This document shows positions 25,506 to 36,634 of a stretch of 64,000 nucleotides of DNA, one piece after another (the first letter of the stretch is position 1; every line of letters begins with the position of its first letter). Origin of the DNA: an uncultured Planctomycetota bacterium (lineage in GTDB: Bacteria; Planctomycetota; Phycisphaerae; Sedimentisphaerales; UBA12454); assembly GCA_903847315.1 (NCBI GenBank), contig CAINDG010000031.1, positions 31,435 to 95,434 on the forward strand. The letters run 5' to 3'. Made by a program: the position numbers and the translations under genes. The notes beneath the pieces were generated by a model that was given only the letters and a program-made list of their open reading frames with translations, made no database searches and was not told where the DNA came from.

Positions 25506-25997
25506 ATGGCGAGATCTCGCCCGCCCATCGGGGCAAGGCGGACAAGAAAAATCCGGCCAGCCACGAAGGCACAAAGACACGAAGTTTTTGGGTATTTTAT
25601 GGATGTGATAGCAAAGACGAAAGGGCACCTCGATGAGATAGTTGAAGCAACATCTCACGGGGCAAGACAGGGGATGGGAATAGAGGGATTGCCGGTCTGT
25701 CCGGCGGGGCATCTGGTTCTATGCAAGCCAGTGGTCAAGACCTTCCTGAAATGGCAGTTTCAGCGGTACGAGACGTTCTGCCATCACTGCGACCGCCGGT
25801 ACATCATTTATCGCTGGCGGTGGCTGGGTGATAAGGAATGGACAATCTGGCGATACAAAGCCTTTCCCCCGAATGAGATAGCCGAAGCGACATCTCACGG
25901 GGCAAGCCGGGATGATACGTTTCACATCGCTTACCGTCCACCAGTCGAGGTATTAAATAATATTCTTTTTATGCAGGAAATCGCCACGATGGGATAG
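25506..25997 (+). CDS. Hypothetical Arg-rich zinc-ribbon protein flanked by a repeated EI.EATSHGA motif (coding status uncertain)
   Basis: 163-aa ORF with CPAGHLVLC...CHHC. The region is GC-rich and stop-free on both strands, so it could instead be structured RNA. Confidence 0.3.
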   Translation: MARSRPPIGARRTRKIRPATKAQRHEVFGYFMDVIAKTKGHLDEIVEATSHGARQGMGIEGLPVCPAGHLVLCKPVVKTFLKWQFQRYETFCHHCDRRYIIYRWRWLGDKEWTIWRYKAFPPNEIAEATSHGASRDDTFHIAYRPPVEVLNNILFMQEIATMG

Positions 25998-26032: not shown

Positions 26033-26479
26033 ATGAGAGCGATAAAATTCAGGGCTTGGGATAAACGCTTAAGCAAAATGCTTGATGCTTTAGGTTTATA
26101 TTTCAGGAGAGACGGTTCGTTAATGGACGTAGGGCTTAGGGACGATAGCGGCACAGTTGTTGATGTCAAAGGTGTAGAGATTATGCAATTTACCGGCTTG
26201 CTCGATAAAAACGGCAAAGAGATTTATGAGGGGGATATAGTAAGAATATTTCATAGAAAATGGTATTTAAATGCCCCGACAGAATGGAAAGTATTTAAAC
26301 TTAAATCCGGCAAAGAACAGTTGGGAGCCGTTTATTTTGACGAGAATGACTATAGATATCGCGCGAAGTGTTTAGAGAATTTTAGTCCGGTATTTGATAA
26401 TTGCGGAGAACACGGAACGAGACATTTTGAAGTAATTGGCAATATTTATGAAAATCCAGAATTGTTAAAATCAACGTAA
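26033..26479 (+). CDS. YopX family phage protein
   Basis: MRAIKFRAWDK...MQFTGLLDKNGKEIYEGDIV...FEVIGNIYENPELL is the classic YopX pattern. AAGGAG lies upstream of the ATG. Confidence 0.85.
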   Translation: MRAIKFRAWDKRLSKMLDALGLYFRRDGSLMDVGLRDDSGTVVDVKGVEIMQFTGLLDKNGKEIYEGDIVRIFHRKWYLNAPTEWKVFKLKSGKEQLGAVYFDENDYRYRAKCLENFSPVFDNCGEHGTRHFEVIGNIYENPELLKST

Positions 26480-26695: not shown

Positions 26696-27616
26696 ATGAG
26701 AAAAAGCTGTAAGCTGAATCAACTTATTGCAAATTATCTGGCGATTAACAAAAGAATCGCGCCGTCAACGGCAGACCTGAATCAAAGGGCTTTCGATGAA
26801 TTGATAGATTTGGCCGGCGATATTGAGGCAGACAGGGTTTCGGCGGATGATGCCGAACTTTTTCAGGCGTATCTGATTGAAAAAAGACTGTCCAAAACGT
26901 CGGCGAATATTTTAATTTCATCGATAAATCCGGTTTTCAACTGGGCGGTTCGAAAGGGAACAATCGGGAAAAATCCTTTTGCGATTTTGAAAAAGTTTAA
27001 AATCACAAAACGTCCGATTACGATTTTCGAGACCGATGAGATTAAAAGGCTGCTGGAATGCTCGAATGATTTATGGAAGGCGAGGATACTGCTGGGACTG
27101 TCAACTCTGAGGCGAGGCGAAGTGCTGAATCTGACAATCAGGGACATAGATTTTGAAAACATGATTATCAGGGTAACGCCAAAAGACAAGACGGCCTATA
27201 CCTGGGCATGGCAGCCGAAGGATTGCGAGATGAGAATAGTGCCTTTGATTTCGCAGCTTGTTAATGTGTTTTTAAGACTCATCGAGAAGCTGCCGGATGG
27301 ACAGCCTTATGTTTGCTTGCTACCGCAGCGGTATCAATTTTTAAGAAGTAAAAACAACTTGAAATATCGCTGGCGAAGCAATCCGGATAATAATTTCGAG
27401 CGGAATTTCAGATTGATTTGCAAGAGGGCGATGATTAGCGGTAAGGTCTTTCACGATTTGCGAAAGACAGGGCTCACCTTACTGACTGGCGGGTTACGAC
27501 TGCAGGAAGTAAGGGATATTGGCGGTCATTCGAGTATTGAAACGACCGAAAAATATCTGGCGAATCGTAAAGACTGTTTGTCTCGAGCGCGTGAACTGAT
27601 AAGTAATGGCGTCTGA
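26696..27616 (+). CDS. int: Tyrosine recombinase / phage integrase
   Basis: 306 aa. Motifs RRGEVLNLTIRDID (Arg I), HDLRKTG (H-x-x-R) and GHSSIETTEKYL (His...Tyr nucleophile). GGAGG lies upstream. Sits adjacent to the att-type tRNA fragment. Confidence 0.9.
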   Translation: MRKSCKLNQLIANYLAINKRIAPSTADLNQRAFDELIDLAGDIEADRVSADDAELFQAYLIEKRLSKTSANILISSINPVFNWAVRKGTIGKNPFAILKKFKITKRPITIFETDEIKRLLECSNDLWKARILLGLSTLRRGEVLNLTIRDIDFENMIIRVTPKDKTAYTWAWQPKDCEMRIVPLISQLVNVFLRLIEKLPDGQPYVCLLPQRYQFLRSKNNLKYRWRSNPDNNFERNFRLICKRAMISGKVFHDLRKTGLTLLTGGLRLQEVRDIGGHSSIETTEKYLANRKDCLSRARELISNGV

Positions 27617-27632: not shown

Positions 27633-27679
27633 CTTGCATGGCATGCAAGAGGTCGTGAGTCCGAGTCTCACTGGCTCCA
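27633..27679 (+). pseudogene. tRNA-Ala(GGC)-like 3' portion (anticodon arm to discriminator) without a 5' half; att site
   Basis: Anticodon arm CTTGC-ATGGCAT-GCAAG (U33, anticodon GGC, A37). Variable loop AGGTC. T arm GTGAG-TCCGAGT-CTCAC. Acceptor 3' strand TGGCTCC (U70 fits the Ala G3:U70 identity pair) plus A73. No matching GGAGCCA/D-arm upstream. The T loop has C where U55 is expected. Confidence 0.55.
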
Positions 27680-27687
27680 TTTGTTTT
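27635..27687 (+). repeat. Direct repeat copy 1 (53 bp, att-type)
   Basis: Hand alignment with 36582-36634 gives 51/53 identical. The only difference is CA (27669-27670) versus GG (36616-36617). Confidence 0.9.
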
Positions 27688-27733: not shown

Positions 27734-28141
27734 ATGTCCGAGAAACCATTTCATCTGGCAGTTCGAGCTGTTATATTAGATAAGCAAAATCGATGTCTGC
27801 TGCTTCGACGGTCGAATGCGTGTCGGAGTTTTGTGGGGAAATGGGAATGGCCGGGCGGCAAAATTGATGATGGTGAAACGTTCGATGTGGCTTTACTGCG
27901 TGAGATTAACGAAGAGACTGGGCTGGAAATCGAACTTATAAACGTTATCGGAGCCTATAATATTGAAATGGCCCAGATACGTCTGGTAGTGTTGTGTATG
28001 GAAGCCAGGCTTGTAGGTGGAACGTTCAAGATAAGCGAAGAGCATGACAAGTATTCGTGGGTGTCTTTGACGGATTTGTCGAAATGGGATATGACGGCCG
28101 GGCTCAAGGAATTTGCCGAGTCTTATGCAGCAAAAAAATAA
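27734..28141 (+). CDS. NUDIX hydrolase
   Basis: Complete Nudix box GGKIDDGETFDVALLREINEETGL (G-x5-E-x7-R-E-U-x-E-E-x-G-U). 135 aa. Confidence 0.85.
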   Translation: MSEKPFHLAVRAVILDKQNRCLLLRRSNACRSFVGKWEWPGGKIDDGETFDVALLREINEETGLEIELINVIGAYNIEMAQIRLVVLCMEARLVGGTFKISEEHDKYSWVSLTDLSKWDMTAGLKEFAESYAAKK

Positions 28142-28154
28142 GGAGAAAATAAAC

Positions 28155-30692
28155 ATGGCTGAGAAAGAAGAACTTACGCCGAGTAAGCACAAAAAACAAA
28201 TAAAAGCCTATCGCAAGGTGTTCGACAGCTATAAAACCTACGCTGGGGTACTCAAACGAATTCTGGAAAACGCATGTAAAGTCTCCTTCCCGGATGCGTT
28301 TATACAATCTCGTCCCAAGAGTATTTCCAGCTTCGCCGAGAAAGCGGTGCGCAGATTCGACAAATACCCAGATGCTGTTAATCAGATGACGGATCTCTGT
28401 GGGGCTCGTGTGATAGTGCAGACCACCGAACAGGTCAAGGCCGTCCGCCAGTTCATTGAGGTAAACTTCCGCATCCACGAAAGCGATGAAAAGGGTATGT
28501 TGCTGGGTGAAAATAAGTTTGGTTATCGCGATATGCACTACATCGTCCAGTTACGTCCCGACCGCTGCAATGCTCTCGGGGTAAAGAAGAAAGAATGCAA
28601 ACAGATAGGCAACCGTAAAGCTGAGATACAGGTGCGGACATGGGTGCAACATGCCTGGGCTGATACGCTGCATGACCGCATATATAAGAACAATCTGAAA
28701 ATCCACCCTGATTTGGTGAGAACGGGTAACCTTCTGGCAGCGCTGATGGAAGAGGGAGATTGCACCTTTGACCGTCTCACCAATGAATTAGACGGCTTGA
28801 TTGCAAACTATACTGCATTCGCTACTAAAGAAGAAGTTAAGAAAAAGATAAAAATTCAGAAACTTATTCTTGATAATGAACCTGATAACGATAAGAAACC
28901 AGGATTATCGCTGAAACTTGCCCGTCTTTACGCGGCGTCTGGGAATCATTCTCGTGTAGTAAATCTGTTGGAACCGTACGCAGGTATTCGTGACGCCAAT
29001 CGCTGTGAGCTGCTTTTGATCCTCGGGAATAGTTTCTGCAGACTACATGGCACCTCACCATCATCAATTGAATACAAGCGGGGACTGCGATTTCTTGAAG
29101 AGTCACTGGACATTTGTGGATGCGAGGATGTTCCATTTGTTCCTCATGTTCGCAAACGTGAAAGCCTGTATGCTCGAGCACTGATGCGACTTGGCTGGGC
29201 TTTAGGGCGGATATCGGGTCAGGAACATAAAGCTCGCGAATATTACCATCAGGCGCATGAACACGAGCCTTCAAATCCTTACTATCTCGCAGAAATGCTG
29301 GGTTTTGAGATGCACTGTTTGCCTGCGGTTGATTTGCCGGCGAGCATGCGAACGATGATACGTGAGGCCATCAAGACTTGCAAACAACATGCCCTTGCCG
29401 GCATAGAATTGCCCTATGCATACTTTACGGCAGGGCGTTTGAGTTTATTATTGAAAATGGCTGATGACGCATTGGGCTATTATGCCCGCGGCATCCAGCA
29501 TTGCTTGGTAGGGAAACATTGTGTTCCAGCAGATATTTTCGATATCGAGGTTCAATGGCTGGTGCGGATCCATTTCGGCGTAAAGCCCTCGATTGAGTGC
29601 CAGCGAGTTATCGACCTCTTAACCATTAGCCTGCATGTTATGGCAGGTTCTAAATACAAGGATGCTAAATCATTACTATCACCTCCTATACTTATCATCG
29701 CCGGCGGTGCAGCAAATATCAATGCGGCCGCTGTAAAAAAAGTCCGTCCTCTGATTCGTACGGCATTGACGGATTTCCAAGGCACGGTCATTGCCGGCGG
29801 TACTAATGTAGGTGTGCCGGGTTGTGTCGGGGACGTGGCTCATGAACTTGCCAGGGGAGACAAAAAGCAGTTCAAGCTCATCGGTTATCTGCCCAAAAGA
29901 ATATCGGAATGTAAATACTACGACGAGATTATAAGAGTCGGCGATGCATTCGAGGCCGATCTGATACTCCGTAATTGGTCGGATATTCTCTCAAAAGGTA
30001 TCAAACCTCAGAATGTCCTGCTATTAGGTTTTGGTGGTGGGGCACTCAGTGCAGTCGAATACCGTATCGCTCTGGGGTTAGGTGCATCGGTAGGAGTTGT
30101 CATAGGTACAGGGGGTGCTGTCAAGGAACTGCTGAACGACCCTATGTGGTCAATACTGCCGAACTTCTATCCGTTGCCTTTCGATGCTAAGACCATTCAG
30201 GCCTTTATTCTACCGAGTGAACGAAAGTTTAAAAATCCTAAGTTGGAAGGTATGGCCAAGGAATTTCACGCTCGTTATGTGGCCGACAACACAAAAGACC
30301 TTCCAAGTAATCTCAAGCCTTGGGGTAAACTCAATGATAGCTATAAGAAAGCCAATTTAGAACAAGCTGCTCATGCCATCCAAATTCTTGAAGCCGCAGG
30401 TTTTAATGTTCGCAAAGCAAAAAAGCCGGTTATTTTCGACTATAGGAGATTTACCAAAAAGGAACTTGAGTTAATGGCCGAGTTGGAGCACGGCCGATGG
30501 AATGTCGAACGTCTGCGCGATGGTTGGCGTTACGGAAAACCTCGTGATGATGCAAAGAAAATCCATGATTGTCTTATCCCCTGGAATGAATTGCCAGACG
30601 GCTCTGAGGGTGTTCGTAAATTTGACCGCGATGCTGTACGTGCCTTTCCCGAGATACTCGCCAATGCCGGGTTAGAGATTTATAAAATCTGA
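28155..30692 (+). CDS. RelA/SpoT-homologue synthetase-only domain - TPR-like helical region - SLOG/LSDAT-like domain - RyR-like domain fusion protein
   Basis: ATG 28155 has AGGAG (28141-28145) overlapping the NUDIX stop; the track ORF starts at 28113. Synthetase motifs: SRPKSISSFAEK, TDLCGARVIV, GYRDMHYIV, EIQVRTWVQHAWADTLHDRIYK. No HD hydrolase domain. Gly-rich loops ILIIAGGAAN / VIAGGTNVGVPG / LLGFGGGALS / VIGTGGAV. C-terminus ELEHGRWNVERLRDGWRYG...IHDCLIPWNELP. Confidence 0.8.
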   Translation: MAEKEELTPSKHKKQIKAYRKVFDSYKTYAGVLKRILENACKVSFPDAFIQSRPKSISSFAEKAVRRFDKYPDAVNQMTDLCGARVIVQTTEQVKAVRQFIEVNFRIHESDEKGMLLGENKFGYRDMHYIVQLRPDRCNALGVKKKECKQIGNRKAEIQVRTWVQHAWADTLHDRIYKNNLKIHPDLVRTGNLLAALMEEGDCTFDRLTNELDGLIANYTAFATKEEVKKKIKIQKLILDNEPDNDKKPGLSLKLARLYAASGNHSRVVNLLEPYAGIRDANRCELLLILGNSFCRLHGTSPSSIEYKRGLRFLEESLDICGCEDVPFVPHVRKRESLYARALMRLGWALGRISGQEHKAREYYHQAHEHEPSNPYYLAEMLGFEMHCLPAVDLPASMRTMIREAIKTCKQHALAGIELPYAYFTAGRLSLLLKMADDALGYYARGIQHCLVGKHCVPADIFDIEVQWLVRIHFGVKPSIECQRVIDLLTISLHVMAGSKYKDAKSLLSPPILIIAGGAANINAAAVKKVRPLIRTALTDFQGTVIAGGTNVGVPGCVGDVAHELARGDKKQFKLIGYLPKRISECKYYDEIIRVGDAFEADLILRNWSDILSKGIKPQNVLLLGFGGGALSAVEYRIALGLGASVGVVIGTGGAVKELLNDPMWSILPNFYPLPFDAKTIQAFILPSERKFKNPKLEGMAKEFHARYVADNTKDLPSNLKPWGKLNDSYKKANLEQAAHAIQILEAAGFNVRKAKKPVIFDYRRFTKKELELMAELEHGRWNVERLRDGWRYGKPRDDAKKIHDCLIPWNELPDGSEGVRKFDRDAVRAFPEILANAGLEIYKI

Positions 30693-30871
30693 AATATTGA
30701 GTTATAATAACGCGCCAAATACGCGTCTTTATATCCTCTACTTTTTGCGACATGCAGGCGGAGCAAAAAGACTGAAAGGCGGTTTTTCCTGCATTGGGGA
30801 AATGCTGTTCGCAGGGCATATTCATAGGGTTATTGCCACTGAAATAGCGAAAAGATTTCAGATAATATGTA

Positions 30872-30900: not shown

Positions 30901-30988
30901 ATATAGAGTAAGGTGAGAACTTAAACGGTGACTTTACTTGAGGTGATAGGAAATTGAAGATACCTGTGTGCGTACAAGGATATCATTA

Positions 30989-33361
30989 ATGGCTCATGAT
31001 GTATTCATCAGCTATTGCGAAGCAGATAAATCGACTGCAGAAGCAATTTGTTCTACCTTAGAGGCAAGAAATATACGTTGCTGGATTGCGCCAAGGGATG
31101 TTCCGCCCGGTAAGTGGGGACGGGCGGTTAACGATGCTGTTAGAAGCAGCAAGATTATGGTTCTTGTTTTTTCGTCTCACGCCAATAAATCCACCTATAC
31201 AGAAAAAGAAGTGGCGATAGCGGTCGAAAGCGGCGTGATGATAATTCCATTACGGATAGAAAATGTGCCCCCTCAAGGCGCTCTTGATTATTATTTAGCG
31301 GGCATACACTGGTTGGATGCCTTAACCCCGTCACTGGAAACTCATTTACGAAAGCTGGCGCGCGAAGTTGAGATTTACTTAAAACCGGATGTCGAACCCC
31401 AGCCGGAGAAAACCGGCTCTCCGTCCCCGCCACGAAAACCAAGGACCCGATGGGTTTTTGTGGCACGTCTTCTTGCCGGTTTGATTGTAGCCCTGTGTTT
31501 TTGCATTATTATTGTTGCCGCTTATTTTGGTATTCAGGCGATCATAATCAAGACCCCATTCGGGCATCCAATATTTCCCCCGCCTCCACCACCTGCGGTA
31601 GCTATAGAAAGTAATGTGCTGCCGGTGCAGGTAAATGAAAATCTTGCAAAAGACTGCCTTGAAACGGCAAAAGAATTAGCCAATAACGGTGATTTTTCCG
31701 GGGCGATAAAGGTTGTCGATGATTTTAAGACAAATCATCCTGATATTGTAAAAAATAATGATAGCAATACCCAAAATTTACTTGCCAAAAAGACCGAATG
31801 GGAAAAAGCGGAAGTTCAACAGCAACAGCAACAACAAAAGGAAAAGCTGATAGTAATGTTATTATCGCAGGCCAAAACATTTATGGAGCAAGACCTGCCG
31901 GATAAGGCTCTTGAGTCTGTAGCGGAGGCCTTAAAAATCGACTCTGAAAATGCACAAGCAAAACAGATGCACGATAGGTTGATTGCATTGAACGATAATA
32001 ATAAAGCCAAAGCAGAAACAGAGCAGCGTTTCAAGGCCTGTTCGGAAGCCGGCTTTGATTATGAGGCTCAGCGGAGTTGGCCGAAAGCTATAGAATCCTA
32101 CACCGGAGCACTTGTGATAAAGCCGGATGATAAAGTGATAAAAGATAGACTTGCGACCTGTCAGCACAATCTTTATTTCGCAAAGGCAGAAATCGCAGAG
32201 ACAGGGGGCAGGCTGAATGAGGCAATTGATAATTATGCCACGGCATTATCTTTCAAACAGGTCGCCTCAACGCAGACAAAGCTCGATGCCGCTAAAAAAG
32301 CCCGGCAGATAAAAATTGATGCTGAAAATAGAAAACATGAATATGATAAATGGTTTGCTAAAGCGCAGACTGCAGAAAAAGAAAAGGATTTATCAGCGGC
32401 AGTAACGTTTTATAAAAGGGCTCAGGAATATACTGAGGAATCACTTAAGGAAAAAATAGATTCATTAAACGACCAAATTGCCGACAAGGAAAATCAGGCT
32501 AAAATTGCTAAATTATTAGCTTATGCCAAGGCAAGAGACAATAAAGCGCAGGGCAAGGAAGCGTTAAAAACGCTGAATGAGATTCTTTCTTTGGATTCTG
32601 ATAATTCAGAAGCTATCGCGTTGAAGGATAAGATAAAAGGCTATTACGACATAAATGGCGGCGATGTTATAACTAACTCTATCGGAATGGGGTTTGCTTA
32701 TATCCCGGCCGGTAAATTTACAATGGGCAGCCCACTTAGTGAGGAGCGAAACTCTGATGAAGGTCTTCAGCGTGAAGTTAAAGTTGATAAAGGTTTTTAT
32801 ATGGGAGTATATGAAGTAACGCAGGGACAGTACAAAGCCGTTATGGGTGAAAATCCAAGCTATTTCAAAGGTGATAATTTTCCAGTGGAACAAGTAAGCT
32901 GGAACGATGCGAATGAATTTTGCAGGAAGTTAAGTCAAAAGGAAGGCAAAATTTACAGATTACCGACAGAAAAAGAATGGGAATACGCCTGCAGGGCCAA
33001 AACAGAAACTGCATTTAATAATGGTCAGAACGAATTAACAACAGTGCGGCAGATTTGCTGGTGCAGTTACGACGGGAAGTTGGGCAGTGCCAGACAGACG
33101 AAACCTGTCGGCAGTTGCGACAAAAATGCCTGGGGATTATACGATATGCATGGCAATGTCTGGGAGTGGTGCGGCGATTTATATACTATGTATCCCAATG
33201 GCACAGTAACAGATTTGCAAGGGACCGACAGCGGGCAGTGCCGTGTCATTCGCGGCGGCTCATGGTACGATATACCGAAAGACTGCAGGTCCGCAACTCG
33301 CAGCAAGATGAAACCTGATGGCAACAGTAATAAAATAGGATTTAGGGTTGTTTGTTTTTGA
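30989..33361 (+). CDS. TIR domain - single TM - coiled-coil/TPR-like region - FGE-sulfatase (SUMF1-like) domain protein
   Basis: ATG 30989 (MAHDVFISYCEADK...); the track ORF starts at GTG 30968. TIR about 30989-31330. TM WVFVARLLAGLIVALCFCIIIVAAYF (31451-31549), preceded by PRKPRTR. C-terminus (about 32665-33358) IPAGKFTMGSP...YEVTQGQY...VSWNDANEFC...LPTEKEWEYACRA...HGNVWEWC...RGGSW...GFRVV. Confidence 0.85.
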   Translation: MAHDVFISYCEADKSTAEAICSTLEARNIRCWIAPRDVPPGKWGRAVNDAVRSSKIMVLVFSSHANKSTYTEKEVAIAVESGVMIIPLRIENVPPQGALDYYLAGIHWLDALTPSLETHLRKLAREVEIYLKPDVEPQPEKTGSPSPPRKPRTRWVFVARLLAGLIVALCFCIIIVAAYFGIQAIIIKTPFGHPIFPPPPPPAVAIESNVLPVQVNENLAKDCLETAKELANNGDFSGAIKVVDDFKTNHPDIVKNNDSNTQNLLAKKTEWEKAEVQQQQQQQKEKLIVMLLSQAKTFMEQDLPDKALESVAEALKIDSENAQAKQMHDRLIALNDNNKAKAETEQRFKACSEAGFDYEAQRSWPKAIESYTGALVIKPDDKVIKDRLATCQHNLYFAKAEIAETGGRLNEAIDNYATALSFKQVASTQTKLDAAKKARQIKIDAENRKHEYDKWFAKAQTAEKEKDLSAAVTFYKRAQEYTEESLKEKIDSLNDQIADKENQAKIAKLLAYAKARDNKAQGKEALKTLNEILSLDSDNSEAIALKDKIKGYYDINGGDVITNSIGMGFAYIPAGKFTMGSPLSEERNSDEGLQREVKVDKGFYMGVYEVTQGQYKAVMGENPSYFKGDNFPVEQVSWNDANEFCRKLSQKEGKIYRLPTEKEWEYACRAKTETAFNNGQNELTTVRQICWCSYDGKLGSARQTKPVGSCDKNAWGLYDMHGNVWEWCGDLYTMYPNGTVTDLQGTDSGQCRVIRGGSWYDIPKDCRSATRSKMKPDGNSNKIGFRVVCF

Positions 33362-33427: not shown

Positions 33428-35254
33428 ATGAAGAGGATTTTTTTACTGACTATATGTTTTTTTATTGGTCTATCCCTTTTCGGCTGCGAGGCGCCGCAAA
33501 TGTGTCCACAGGCCGATGTATTCAAAAAACAGGGGAAATTAGAACAGGCAATTGGCGAATGTGAACAATGTCTAAAGGCGTCAACATCGAAAAGTAAGCA
33601 GCAGCAGATACAAAAGGATATTGACTCGCTGAAAGCCGAGATCGTTTCAAAAAGTCTTGAAGAAGCGGCATCGGTATTTAAGGGTGAGCAAACAATAGCT
33701 AACTATGAAAAAGCGATTCGTATTCTCAATGCCCAAAAGCAATATGACCAGGGGAGTGGCATTTCAGCACGTCTTGCCGACTATCGCAGGCAGATAGAAA
33801 ATCTGCGGGAACAAATAAACAAATTTCTGGAAACAGCCAAATTGGAGACGGCAAAAGCACAGTGGAGGGATGCTGTTCAGTCTGTCGGTCAGGCCCTGAA
33901 GTTAGATCCGGATGACAGTAGTATTGCATCACGGTTCGCAGGACTTATTGAAGAGCGTAACGAGTACTATAAACTGCGGATTAAAAGTGAATGTGATAAA
34001 AGAGACTATGTGGAGGCGTCTAAAGTATTAAAAAGCTTCGGCCAGGAGCAGCCGGCTCCTTCCGACCTGGTTTTGAAATCAATAGAGTCTCTGGTAAATG
34101 AAACTAAGGGACAAGCAGTACGAAGCGAGGTTGAGAAATTAATAGCAGATAAGAAATACTTTACCGCTTACAGCCGGATTCAAGAAACAGAAGTAAAAAA
34201 CTGTAAAGACTTACTTGAAGATGTCCGGCTTAAAGGAAGCGAATTTTATAAGAATTTGGCCTACAAGGAGAAAACCAATGTTAATAATTTTCACGCGTAT
34301 ATAGCGGCAGTCAAGGCTAAAATACTTAGTCCCGATAATAATGAAATTTTCATCCTGCATCGAGATATGACGGATATAGTCGATGATTCCATCTGGGTTA
34401 AAATTGGTATCGCTGAATTTAAAGCACCGACAGCAGAACTGGGAGCCGGAAGGGAATTTACCGGAATGCTCGTCAGTCATTTGGGGAAATTATTGCCGTA
34501 TGGAGTAAGAATCGACGAGCCGGAAAAAATAAAGTTTTCAGAAAATCGCGGAGCCCAGGAAGGCGAAGTCATTGTGCAGCTGGGTCAAAAACTTGGTATA
34601 TTCGGCGATGTTTCTACTTTAGAGGTCAACACACGCCGGGAGGAGTCGGAAAATACTATTATTGTTCCGTTAGGAGAAGAAGAATCGCCCAATCCGCAAT
34701 ATCAGCAGATGATGATGCTCTACGGTCGTGATACCAGCAAATGGCCATCGATACCGCCTGCGACCCTCAAGAAATCTACCACTACACTTGCAAAATACAA
34801 ACGCGGGAAACAGTTGATGGAAGGAAGAATGGTTGTTTCAGTTAGGCTTTATTCTGCTGCGTCAAATGCCTCTATTGGAAACGAAACCCTGTCGGCTCAG
34901 CTTGACTGTTCCGATACTTTCCAGGAAGGCGTCCAGGGCACCGATATTAAGGAAGATCCCCTTGAGATGCCCAAGACCGAGCTTCAGATGAAACAGGAAT
35001 TGAAGCAGAACATGGTCGAAAAAACATCAAAATGGATACTTGAACGCGACCTTGCCCTTAACCTTGGTTTTTTCCAATTGCGTCAGAAACATTATTATAA
35101 ACAGGCAGAAGACATAATAGGACGTCGAGAATATAACGAGGCAGTTAAGGTATTAGCACAGGGCTATCTGTATTGTCTTCGGGATAACATTCCTGAAAAT
35201 GATGAGTGGTTTCAGAAAATTCGCCAAAAGGTACTATATGAATTAACAGAATAG
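33428..35254 (+). CDS. Lipoprotein with N-terminal TPR-like helices and a C-terminal CsgG/LpoB-like beta region (function unknown)
   Basis: Signal peptide plus lipobox LSLFG-C (Cys codon 33485-33487). 66-nt gap after the TIR gene. The segment KIGIAEFKAPTAELGAGREFTGMLVSHL resembles periplasmic lipoprotein scaffold domains. Confidence 0.55.
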   Translation: MKRIFLLTICFFIGLSLFGCEAPQMCPQADVFKKQGKLEQAIGECEQCLKASTSKSKQQQIQKDIDSLKAEIVSKSLEEAASVFKGEQTIANYEKAIRILNAQKQYDQGSGISARLADYRRQIENLREQINKFLETAKLETAKAQWRDAVQSVGQALKLDPDDSSIASRFAGLIEERNEYYKLRIKSECDKRDYVEASKVLKSFGQEQPAPSDLVLKSIESLVNETKGQAVRSEVEKLIADKKYFTAYSRIQETEVKNCKDLLEDVRLKGSEFYKNLAYKEKTNVNNFHAYIAAVKAKILSPDNNEIFILHRDMTDIVDDSIWVKIGIAEFKAPTAELGAGREFTGMLVSHLGKLLPYGVRIDEPEKIKFSENRGAQEGEVIVQLGQKLGIFGDVSTLEVNTRREESENTIIVPLGEEESPNPQYQQMMMLYGRDTSKWPSIPPATLKKSTTTLAKYKRGKQLMEGRMVVSVRLYSAASNASIGNETLSAQLDCSDTFQEGVQGTDIKEDPLEMPKTELQMKQELKQNMVEKTSKWILERDLALNLGFFQLRQKHYYKQAEDIIGRREYNEAVKVLAQGYLYCLRDNIPENDEWFQKIRQKVLYELTE

Positions 35255-35360: not shown

Positions 35361-35389
35361 TTGCTTCCTGGTGCTGATATTGATATAAT
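35361..35389 (+). promoter_or_regulatory. Extended -10 promoter: TTGCTT - 17 nt (ending TGa) - TATAAT
   Basis: TTGCTT at 35361-35366. TGATATAAT at 35381-35389 matches TGnTATAAT. The track ORF TTG start coincides with the -35, which argues for the downstream ATG. Confidence 0.55.
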
Positions 35390-35477
35390 ACGAGCAACTG
35401 GAGAAAACAGTGTTGATGGAACGAGGCAATGGCTGGGCAAAGAGTTGGTAATCAAAGATGTAGGAGAGAAACCTTTT

Positions 35478-36524
35478 ATGAGTAATGAAGGCAATATTAA
35501 ATTACCATACGATTACGATATGCATGACAATGATGCGGAGATTCCATCGGCTGAGCCGCTTAAAGAAGCTCTTGTGTACTGCAAAGATAATATCTTGGAA
35601 GCCTATCGCAAATATGACAGTTCGGCTCTACTTAATCAGAAATACCATCGGTTACTTGCCGTTATCGCATCTGTGTGTGGTACAATTGCAGTATTGTTTG
35701 CAATAATGCAACTCTCAGGTTTTTTCCTGACTTCATGGCCGATGTGGGTCGAGATAGGAGCTGCCACAATAGCTTTTTTAGCTGTGATGGCAGGATTAAT
35801 TTGGTCTCAACAAGCTAAATGGCTTTTGAATCGTCACAAAGCTGAGCGATATAGAATGCTCAAGTTTCTTTCGATTATTCATCCTGATTTGTGGATGAAT
35901 AATATAGGCCGATGGAAAGATAAATTTACACACAAAATAAAAGAAATCGAACAAATGACACCACGATTGCTTCGCGACTGGGCCGAAGGGGATCGATTGT
36001 CCGAAATGCCACTATTGGAAAAATGTGTATTCGATGAAACTACAATTCGTGCCTTGGTTGATTATTACTTGGATAAACGTCTCGAAATTCAGAAAACTTA
36101 TTTTAAAAGCCGAGAAATGCGGAACGAAAAACTGGATCATTACACGCGAAATCTGCCATATTTACTTTATTTTTTAAGCGTAATGGCTGTTTTTTGGCAT
36201 TTTATAGTGGATATTTTTTCCAGCCACAGTCATGGGATGCATTCTGCCAGTGTGATGCTTATCATTCTTGCAGCTTCGTTTCCTGTATTGGCAGCGGGGA
36301 TTCGTACTCTCCGATCTACCTATGAGTTTGCTCGCAGTGCCGCTCTTTTTCAGGCAAAATATGCGGCACTAGACCGTATGTTTGTAACGATTACAGATGA
36401 AATTAAACAGTTGCCAATCAACAAAGAGACAATACTAACTAACTTGTGGCAATGTGAGCAATTTCTCAAGGCGGAGCATCGAGAGTGGTTGCGTTTGATG
36501 ATGGAAGCAGATTGGTTTATTTAA
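35478..36524 (+). CDS. Tandem 2TM membrane protein, SLATT/DUF4231-like (candidate pore-forming effector)
   Basis: ATG 35478, with AGGAG at 35462-35466. Two modules, each an amphipathic helix plus two TM helices plus a basic helix. Module 1: YHRLLAVIASVCGTIAVLFAIM / VEIGAATIAFLAVMAGLIW / QQAKWLLNRHKAERYRMLKF. Module 2: LPYLLYFLSVMAVFWHFIV / ASVMLIILAASFPVLAAGI / RTLRSTYEFARSAALFQAKY. Confidence 0.5.
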   Translation: MSNEGNIKLPYDYDMHDNDAEIPSAEPLKEALVYCKDNILEAYRKYDSSALLNQKYHRLLAVIASVCGTIAVLFAIMQLSGFFLTSWPMWVEIGAATIAFLAVMAGLIWSQQAKWLLNRHKAERYRMLKFLSIIHPDLWMNNIGRWKDKFTHKIKEIEQMTPRLLRDWAEGDRLSEMPLLEKCVFDETTIRALVDYYLDKRLEIQKTYFKSREMRNEKLDHYTRNLPYLLYFLSVMAVFWHFIVDIFSSHSHGMHSASVMLIILAASFPVLAAGIRTLRSTYEFARSAALFQAKYAALDRMFVTITDEIKQLPINKETILTNLWQCEQFLKAEHREWLRLMMEADWFI

Positions 36525-36581: not shown

Positions 36582-36634
36582 TGCATGGCATGCAAGAGGT
36601 CGTGAGTCCGAGTCTGGCTGGCTCCATTTGTTTT
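36582..36634 (+). repeat. Direct repeat copy 2 (53 bp, att-type; T-stem pairing disrupted)
   Basis: 51/53 identical to 27635-27687. The upstream sequence (GTTGA) does not complete the anticodon stem, so identity starts at the repeat boundary. Confidence 0.9.

Follow-up and report, generated by a model that had tools for sequence, protein, structure and literature searches.

Background

Which part does a membrane protein with two SLATT modules play when its gene closes a small, tRNA-flanked island of genes for making and reading nucleotide signals? The question is raised by a stretch of 64,000 nucleotides (nt) from an uncultured bacterium of the phylum Planctomycetota (contig CAINDG010000031.1 of GenBank assembly GCA_903847315.1), which as a whole is referred to here as the window and from whose first letter all positions are counted. 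A sequence-only reading had described a tandem SLATT-like protein with its own promoter, in the layout of effectors that accompany SLOG, SMODS and TIR genes. Here, we investigated this gene, its homologues and their neighbourhoods. The tandem SLATT probably serves as inner-membrane effector in a Thoeris-like conflict system that relies on TIR-based nucleotide signalling and is carried by an 8.9-kb island at a tRNA-Ala site, and it is an uncharacterised tandem variant within a multi-component TIR system. The partnership of its family with RyR (ryanodine-receptor) domains is the most interesting result; neither this partnership nor the tRNA-flanked island was part of the earlier reading, which held at each point open to a check, with the promoter staying no more than a motif.

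Two diverged SLATT modules in one chain

The gene and its modules lie as follows, with residues numbered from the preferred start codon and transmembrane abbreviated as TM.

35478..36524, + strand: tandem-SLATT gene, 348 amino acids (aa) plus stop, preferred start ATG 35478
35529..35987, + strand: SLATT module 1, residues 18-170, with a pre-TM helix (28-57), TM1 (58-80), TM2 (88-110) and a basic helix (113-134; WLLNRHKAERYRMLKF)
36024..36521, + strand: SLATT module 2, residues 183-348, with a helix (187-224), TM3 (226-248) and TM4 (256-277)

In a Kyte-Doolittle scan of the 348-aa form, hydrophobic segments stood out at 58-80 and 88-110 (first pair) and at 226-248 and 256-277 (second pair), four in all. 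The loops that join the paired TM segments are uncharged and about 8 residues long, and K/R-rich stretches follow each pair, which points to two hairpins in the membrane, the N- and C-terminus and every soluble helix being predicted to lie in the cytoplasm. The AlphaFold2 model, made with 55 homologues (pLDDT 91.1, pTM 0.86), is all-helical, with a long helix before each TM pair and further helices after it. Hydropathy and model together bear out the earlier description of one module occurring twice, each copy a TM hairpin between helices, and the two peptides then quoted are present in the translation of the open reading frame (ORF): WSQQAKWLLNRHKAERYRMLKF is residues 109-130 and IRTLRSTYEFARSAALFQAKYAALDRM residues 275-301. 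The basic helix of module 2 begins at residue 275 (RTLRSTYEFAR), and the module has a conserved C-terminal helix (...EHREWLRLMMEADWF). Four cytoplasmic arginines, R119, R201, R276 and R286, are invariant in the family. Residue 241 (36195-36197, within ...VFWHFIVD...) is a histidine in the window and nearly invariant among homologues; the public gene call P0001, listed as 100% identical, has glutamine there. A faint Foldseek resemblance of the model to ClyA-type alpha-pore toxins (AhlB, SmhB) was not significant and was set aside.

The SLATT families were reportedly defined by Burroughs et al. in 2015. The window protein shares with them the two-TM (2TM) hairpin between helices, the association with SLOG, TIR and nucleotide enzymes, and the predicted role of a pore-forming effector; it differs in having two modules per chain, each nearer to a different subfamily, and in scoring below the curated cut-offs itself. 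Its matches are NCBIfam SLATT_1 at residues 34-134 (30.4 bits, cut-off 41, E 3e-7), DUF4231 (PF14015) at residues 42-124 (20.6 bits, cut-off 24.7, E 6e-4) and Pfam SLATT_1 (PF18181) at residues 197-337, over the whole profile 1-122 (17.3 bits, cut-off 26.3, E 5e-3); the N half also matches SLATT_3 (PF18184). A family consensus built from 55 homologues passes these thresholds: the N half scores 37.3 bits for DUF4231 (cut-off 24.7), 34.5 for SLATT_3 (26.3) and 41.5 for NCBIfam SLATT_1 (41), and the C half scores 28.0 bits for Pfam SLATT_1 (cut-off 26.3, profile 1-122). Two homologues, P0024 and P0026, are each above cut-offs in both halves, and among 21 homologues scanned DUF4231 was matched by 18, SLATT_1 by 16 and SLATT_3 by 14. 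Because the consensus halves and several homologues exceed the curated cut-offs, we assign both halves, by profile, to SLATT modules and the gene to the SLATT superfamily at family level, so that the similarity claimed earlier was recovered in both halves, sub-threshold for the protein itself and above threshold for its family. The halves align with each other colinearly over 131 columns and weakly (hhalign E 0.0018, probability 15%), which rules out a recent internal duplication; judged by its profile matches, the tandem is an old pair of diverged SLATT modules, each like a different SLATT subfamily.

Sixty-one homologues were found, and those with any name are called "hypothetical protein"; the closest, P0002, has 60% identity and likewise 348 aa. 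In a profile search of 1.84 billion representatives, 470 clusters passed E<=1e-30 and 1391 passed E<=1e-10, with the best matches spanning the full tandem. These numbers bear on the plainest alternative, namely that the gene encodes a common membrane protein with four TM segments and no role in conflict, its weak SLATT scores being hydrophobic-helix noise. Every match of the window protein does lie below curated thresholds, and other TM families (DUF2207_C, DUF2157) score similarly weakly. However, the matches span soluble flanking helices and whole profiles and exceed cut-offs at family level, conservation extends over the full length in the 470 clusters at E<=1e-30, the family is tied to RyR and TIR genes, and the gene sits in an island with TIR, SLOG, NUDIX and RelA/SpoT genes. 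We regard this alternative as very improbable indeed.

RyR domains as partners of the tandem SLATT

What the tandem SLATT works with was approached through a census of related loci. When a single genome was scanned for each species, 80 loci came out, distributed over Acidobacteriota, Planctomycetota, Verrucomicrobiota, Nitrospirota, Chloroflexota, Gemmatimonadota, Myxococcota and Methanoperedens-type archaea, and the census counts cover 81 loci. ORFs were called and searched with profiles seeded from the window's own domains, using the best-scoring SLATT ORF per locus, and sampled matches were confirmed with Pfam (RyR 107-123 bits, TIR_2 50-79 bits). De novo clustering of the neighbour ORFs yielded mostly antisense shadow ORFs from genomes rich in GC, and these were discarded. 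The counts, in loci, were:

RyR within 6 kb: 71/81
RyR adjacent upstream, same strand: 49/81
RyR fused to the SLATT N-terminus: 8/81
RyR adjacent downstream: 4/81
TIR within 6 kb: 50/81
TIR within 400 nt: 35/81
RyR and TIR together: 45/81
SLOG: 10/81
RelA/SpoT: 8/81
NUDIX: 6/81
FGE: 5/81

The RyR domain is thus adjacent or fused to SLATT at 61 of the 81 loci, most of which are three-gene sets of TIR, RyR and tandem SLATT (SLATT2). The 49 upstream RyR genes encode proteins of about 94 aa and overlap or abut the SLATT start, and at three loci other than L001, L002 and L003 a small RyR gene lies directly upstream of the tandem SLATT with TIR downstream or absent. Natural fusions (L016, L018, L025, L033, L039, L043, L045 and L061) are real single ORFs of 429-461 aa in which RyR occupies residues ~25-95 and the tandem SLATT begins at ~100, which puts RyR at the cytoplasmic N-terminus. 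Of the company that the earlier reading had expected for the SLATT gene, SLOG and TIR occur both in the window's island and in related loci; no SMODS gene was seen in the island or in the 81-locus census. RyR also occurs near the tandem SLATT in proteins of about 600 aa with an NAD-binding TrkA_N domain (L001 2845-4587; L002 11089-12903), there besides the RelA/SpoT-SLOG-RyR protein.

A paralogous branch carries a different N-terminal domain, alpha/beta and of about 200 aa, fused to the tandem SLATT in the position taken by RyR (P0034, P0137; L015 8159-9901, L035 970-2484, L037 874-2388, L053 6869-8371). It has the motifs GxTGHR...GAD...WDG...GGT, and Pfam, NCBIfam and PDB sequence searches with it returned nothing, or just YAcAr (E 0.005) and DprA (E 0.075). 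With 3 sequences as input, AlphaFold2 gave a low-quality model (pLDDT 57) that displayed a Rossmann-like strand-helix pattern with no fold match, and the domain is possibly SLOG-like on these weak matches.

The RyR domains were found to retain the residues through which phage relatives handle Thoeris-type signals. RyDEP, a phage RyR-domain protein described in a 2026 preprint, cleaves the 2' and 3' isomers of cyclic ADP-ribose (2'/3'cADPR); its residues H75, W78, H100 and D117 contact 3'cADPR, with the His/Asp pair as catalytic dyad, and its relatives bind 2'/3'cADPR with nanomolar affinity via His75/Trp78/His100/Asp117 (PMC13232231). A second phage protein, RyR Tad, also from a 2026 preprint, binds 3'cADPR with a dissociation constant of 43 nM and binds 2'cADPR and cADPR too (10.64898/2026.06.04.730250). 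The 94-aa host partners, which also match ryanodine-receptor repeats in the PDB, have H31/W34/H56/D73, the same residues at the same spacing as RyDEP (His, Trp +3, His +25, Asp +42). In the window, RyR is the C-terminal domain of a RelA/SpoT protein (PF02026, 51 bits, cut-off 27.4) and has H793/W796/H818/D838, with a 3-residue insertion before the Asp. With the ligand residues conserved in the host partners, binding of a cADPR isomer is predicted.

The same residues open a second explanation, in which the tandem SLATT senses the TIR-made nucleotide itself and RyR, as a brake encoded by the host, would clear cADPR isomers alongside NUDIX, either as a sponge or as a glycosidase, and so protect against self-killing. 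The His/Asp dyad to which RyDEP owes its cADPR glycosidase activity is retained in the host RyR partners, and 10 of the 81 loci have no RyR gene within 6 kb. Direct sensing has also been proposed for ThsH, the SLATT protein of type VII Thoeris, for which assemblies that span the membrane are predicted, with basic nucleotide pockets on the cytoplasmic side, between the SLATT protomers, where it would bind cADPR (10.64898/2025.12.03.692087); the four invariant arginines of the tandem family could form such a pocket within one chain. However, the eight independent fusions of RyR to SLATT, and the tight coupling of an upstream RyR gene at 49 loci, fit a stoichiometric sensor subunit better than a diffusible brake, most of the tested phage RyR homologues bind the signal and do not cleave it (PMC13232231), and the alpha/beta, possibly SLOG-like, domain that replaces RyR N-terminally in some relatives is typical of swapped sensor domains. 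Taken together, a brake of this kind appears unlikely.

A more far-reaching reading of the partnership, which we hold to be somewhat less likely than not, is that host RyR (R12) would serve as receptor for cADPR isomers within an effector, split or fused, of RyR plus tandem SLATT. This would be a widespread bacterial and archaeal Thoeris-like class, with a domain of the ryanodine-receptor type gating membrane permeability on receipt of a TIR-made ADP-ribose (ADPR) signal. RyR domains were shown in mid-2026 to bind or degrade Thoeris signals, in phage counter-defence proteins only, and the linkage on the host side (71 of 81 loci, 8 fusions, usually with TIR) points to a missing host receptor role. 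A paper that joins SLATT and RyR was not found in the searchable literature, which did not extend to the founding SLATT paper, and the type VII Thoeris preprint with its supplements (10.64898/2025.12.03.692087) does not mention RyR.

The tRNA-flanked island of the window

In the window, the tandem SLATT is the last of five island genes on the + strand, which are separated by gaps of 66-275 nt. Its neighbours and the flanking features are:

26696..27616, + strand: tyrosine integrase, Phage_integrase 2.6e-15, phrog_1 integrase 6.7e-42; ends 19 nt before the left repeat, outside the island
27635..27687, + strand: left copy of a 53-nt direct repeat, 3' two-thirds of tRNA-Ala(GGC)
27734..28141, + strand: NUDIX hydrolase, E 1.3e-23, complete Nudix box (GKIDDGETFDVALLREINEETGL), PADLOC candidate PDC-S07
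28113..30692, + strand: RelA/SpoT - TPR - SLOG (LSDAT_prok) - RyR protein, 859 aa, RelA_SpoT 1.2e-17, RyR 1.7e-13, LSDAT_prok at cut-off
30968..33361, + strand: TIR - TM - TPR - FGE-sulfatase-like protein, 797 aa, TIR_2 4e-23, FGE-sulfatase 3.5e-51
33428..35254, + strand: predicted lipoprotein, 608 aa, signal peptide ...LSLFGC, weak TPR-like matches
36582..36634, + strand: right copy of the 53-nt direct repeat, 58 nt past the SLATT stop, right end of the island

The 797-aa protein has a receptor-like layout, with TIR at residues 12-128, a single TM segment at 162-190, TPR, and an FGE-sulfatase-like part at 578-795; the glutamate in ...STYTEKEV... presumably occupies the catalytic position of TIR NADases. 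The lipoprotein may work with the periplasmic TPR-FGE part of this TIR protein, and a search for its counterpart in 87 related loci hit only itself. In the 859-aa protein the RelA/SpoT catalytic motifs DLCGARV, YRDMH and EIQVRT are intact, and the RyR domain, encoded at ~30465-30677, resembles ryanodine-receptor repeats in the PDB. Judged by the complete Nudix box and these motifs, both the NUDIX and the RelA/SpoT enzyme of the island look active. The combination of SLATT2, RelA_SpoT-SLOG-RyR, NUDIX and TIR recurs in L001, L002 and L003 with differing gene orders, and in L003 it adjoins QatABCD (KAP NTPase, QatB, QueC-like, TatD; L003 4226-9090), which is a defence-island context. At L059 (7787-9784), as at 7 other loci, the place that the RelA/SpoT-headed protein has in the window is filled, near the tandem SLATT, by a protein with TPR-S, SLOG-like and adenylate/guanylate-cyclase parts.

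An active RelA/SpoT enzyme could itself make the true SLATT ligand, e.g., a pyrophosphorylated adenine nucleotide or an ADPR derivative, in a two-step cascade in which TIR, SLOG and RyR only control the enzyme. Besides the intact catalytic motifs, the position of the RelA/SpoT-SLOG-RyR gene, which adjoins or overlaps the SLATT gene in L010, L017 and L046, is consistent with this, as is the nucleotide cyclase head borne elsewhere by the TPR-S + SLOG-like protein, which suggests a second-messenger-producing position. RelA/SpoT, however, is present in just 8 of the 81 loci, so SLATT cannot generally depend on its product, and the common core is RyR + SLATT, with or without TIR. Moreover, where domains of the RelA/SpoT type occur in defence, they usually act as toxic effectors (toxSAS, CapRel), which also counts against such a cascade, and we consider it quite improbable.

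The two copies of the 53-nt repeat are identical at 51 of 53 positions, are the only copies in the window and bracket exactly the five-gene island. Read as RNA, the repeat gives an anticodon arm (CTTGC-ATGGCAT-GCAAG), a variable loop (AGGTC), a T arm (GTGAG-TCCGAGT-CTCAC) and an acceptor strand (TGGCTCC) followed by A. The left copy has a weak tRNA score of 17 bits, and ARAGORN and Rfam at gathering thresholds detected no intact tRNA or tmRNA in the window. The T arm recurs in a genuine ARAGORN-called tRNA-Pro(CGG) on an unrelated metagenome contig (L088 1093-1167). The T loop TCCGAGT (window 27656-27672) has C in place of the near-universal U55. Since the repeat brackets the island, no intact tRNA is found in the window and the integrase gene ends 19 nt to the left, the simplest reading of the sequence is that the SLATT system is an 8.9-kb integrase-less island and that insertions occurred in tandem at one tRNA-Ala site. 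GC content does not distinguish the island from its surroundings.

To the left, window 1-26000 holds a long run of + strand genes, including those for proteins of 1010 and 1476 aa, and may be an unrecognised mobile element or phage. A prophage left of the island was not called, with PHROGs matching just the integrase and a phrog_98 protein (26033-26479). A 39-nt direct repeat (25633-25671 and 25873-25911, 87% identical) inside ORF 25506-25997 encodes the repeated peptide EIVEATSHGARQG / EIAEATSHGASRD.

Start codon and promoter of the tandem-SLATT gene

Two short elements upstream of the tandem-SLATT gene bear on where it starts and how it may be expressed.

35361..35389, + strand: promoter-like element, -35 TTGCTT 35361-35366, 17-nt spacer, TG 35381-35382 (TGn 35381-35383), -10 TATAAT 35384-35389
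35463..35468, + strand: Shine-Dalgarno-like GGAGAG, 9 nt 5' of ATG 35478

The longest ORF runs from TTG 35361 to 36524 on the + strand, and its TTG is the start used by the public gene call P0001. In the family alignment, conservation across homologues starts at D-Y-D-M-x-D, residues 12-17 from ATG 35478, and no conservation is seen among homologues upstream of this motif. The real start is probably ATG 35478, as had been argued earlier, because conservation begins after it, the homologue P0002 is also 348 aa long and GGAGAG lies 9 nt upstream.

The promoter proposed earlier fared less uniformly. The motif TTGCTT-N17-TGn-TATAAT is present as described, in the 223-nt gap 5' of the gene, and its frequency in the window is not above chance (TGNTATAAT is counted 3 times against 3.0 expected); the scan tool did not list it because its -35 matches the consensus at 3 of 6 positions only. 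Its position is the sole suggestive argument that the window offers. At the P0002 locus (L001) a better element, TTGACT-N17-TATAAT (11/12), ends 68 nt before the SLATT gene, and the upstream regions of the two loci do not align, so that conservation of a promoter is not demonstrable. A scan of the window gave no convincing terminator between the lipoprotein and tandem-SLATT genes. An own extended -10 promoter, and with it independent expression, is therefore plausible and unproven. Elsewhere in the island, the gap of 275 nt that separates the RelA/SpoT gene from the TIR gene holds a promoter-like TTTATA-N18-TATAAT (10/12) directly followed by a GC hairpin (30679-30726), from which the island may comprise more than one transcription unit.

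Comparison with known systems and proposed mechanism

The nearest characterised system is type VII Thoeris, in which the TIR protein ThsB and the SLATT protein ThsH form an experimentally active defence with cADPR as signal (10.64898/2025.12.03.692087). Both combine a TIR signal generator with a SLATT membrane effector, ThsH being likened to the window protein by description and not by sequence, and in both the TIR gene lies in the locus of the effector (window TIR_2 E 4e-23). Type VII, however, is a compact two-gene operon with an effector annotated simply as SLATT, whereas the window has a five-gene island, a tandem four-TM SLATT and a transmembrane, receptor-like TIR protein, and systems of the window's type add NUDIX and RyR, the latter standalone, fused or on the RelA/SpoT-SLOG protein. 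With the phage proteins RyDEP and RyR Tad, the host RyR partners share the PF02026 domain and the His/Trp/His/Asp ligand residues. Those phage proteins are soluble counter-defence factors (sponge or glycosidase), whereas host RyR, besides its linkage to TIR genes, is coupled to a membrane effector or fused with it, which suggests that it forms the receptor side of the same cADPR-isomer signalling. The 'SLOG and 4TM' candidates of the type VII study (Table S2, 10.64898/2025.12.03.692087) likewise have a TIR-adjacent four-TM effector with an N-terminal nucleotide-sensor domain. They may correspond to the paralogues P0034, P0137, L015, L035 and L053, in which the ~200-aa alpha/beta domain replaces RyR, although the SLOG-superfamily scores of that domain are weak. 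By analogy only, animal TRPM2 and ryanodine receptors also combine SLOG, NUDIX and RyR with a membrane-permeability device and ADPR/cADPR ligands; their membrane parts are non-homologous, as SLATT is a 2TM hairpin and not a six-TM channel.

In the mechanism that we propose, the TIR-TM-TPR-FGE protein would sense infection or envelope perturbation, and its cytoplasmic TIR domain would convert NAD+ into an ADPR-derived signal, putatively a cADPR isomer. RyR, and probably SLOG too, of the RelA/SpoT-TPR-SLOG-RyR protein would read this signal, after which liganded RyR could engage the tandem SLATT and cause its opening or oligomerisation, with collapse of membrane integrity as an abortive, presumably anti-phage, response. 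A further arrest, alarmone- or tRNA-directed, may come from the RelA/SpoT head, and NUDIX would set the activation threshold by hydrolysing ADPR-type molecules.

Several observations weigh against this scheme. The window protein taken alone stays below every curated SLATT/DUF4231 cut-off, a Foldseek comparison of its model with the PDB gave nothing below E 0.09 (TM-scores <=0.28), and PADLOC has no model matching the tandem SLATT. RyR of the window is not beside SLATT; it lies 4.7 kb upstream on a separate protein with two genes between, so any coupling to SLATT must here act in trans, and as the RyR partners retain the catalytic dyad (His/Asp) of RyDEP, they could degrade the signal instead of relaying it. 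TIR is missing within 6 kb at 31 of the 81 loci, and in Candidatus Methanoperedens (L006 / L012 9604-11062) RyR and the tandem SLATT are surrounded by housekeeping genes only, and TIR is absent over 10 kb, so the pair can exist without a local signal generator. Finally, when candidate TIR systems whose effectors are of the 'SLOG and 4TM' kind were tried in E. coli, no defence was seen (10.64898/2025.12.03.692087).

Significance

SLATT effectors are widespread, and the tandem family offers a single-chain "pseudo-dimer" with a high-confidence model that is suited to studies of gating. In the window, one small tRNA-flanked island unites TIR, SLOG, RyR and NUDIX with a RelA/SpoT enzyme and an FGE-like sensor in the periplasm, and so offers a compact construct for work in another host. 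If host RyR is the receptor subunit, phage RyDEP and RyR-Tad sponges would be decoys of this host receptor. The linkage of host RyR to SLATT gives an evolutionary context for the effects of cADPR on animal ryanodine receptors, and, should the proposal hold, the cADPR-RyR connection of animals would have a prokaryotic immune antecedent.

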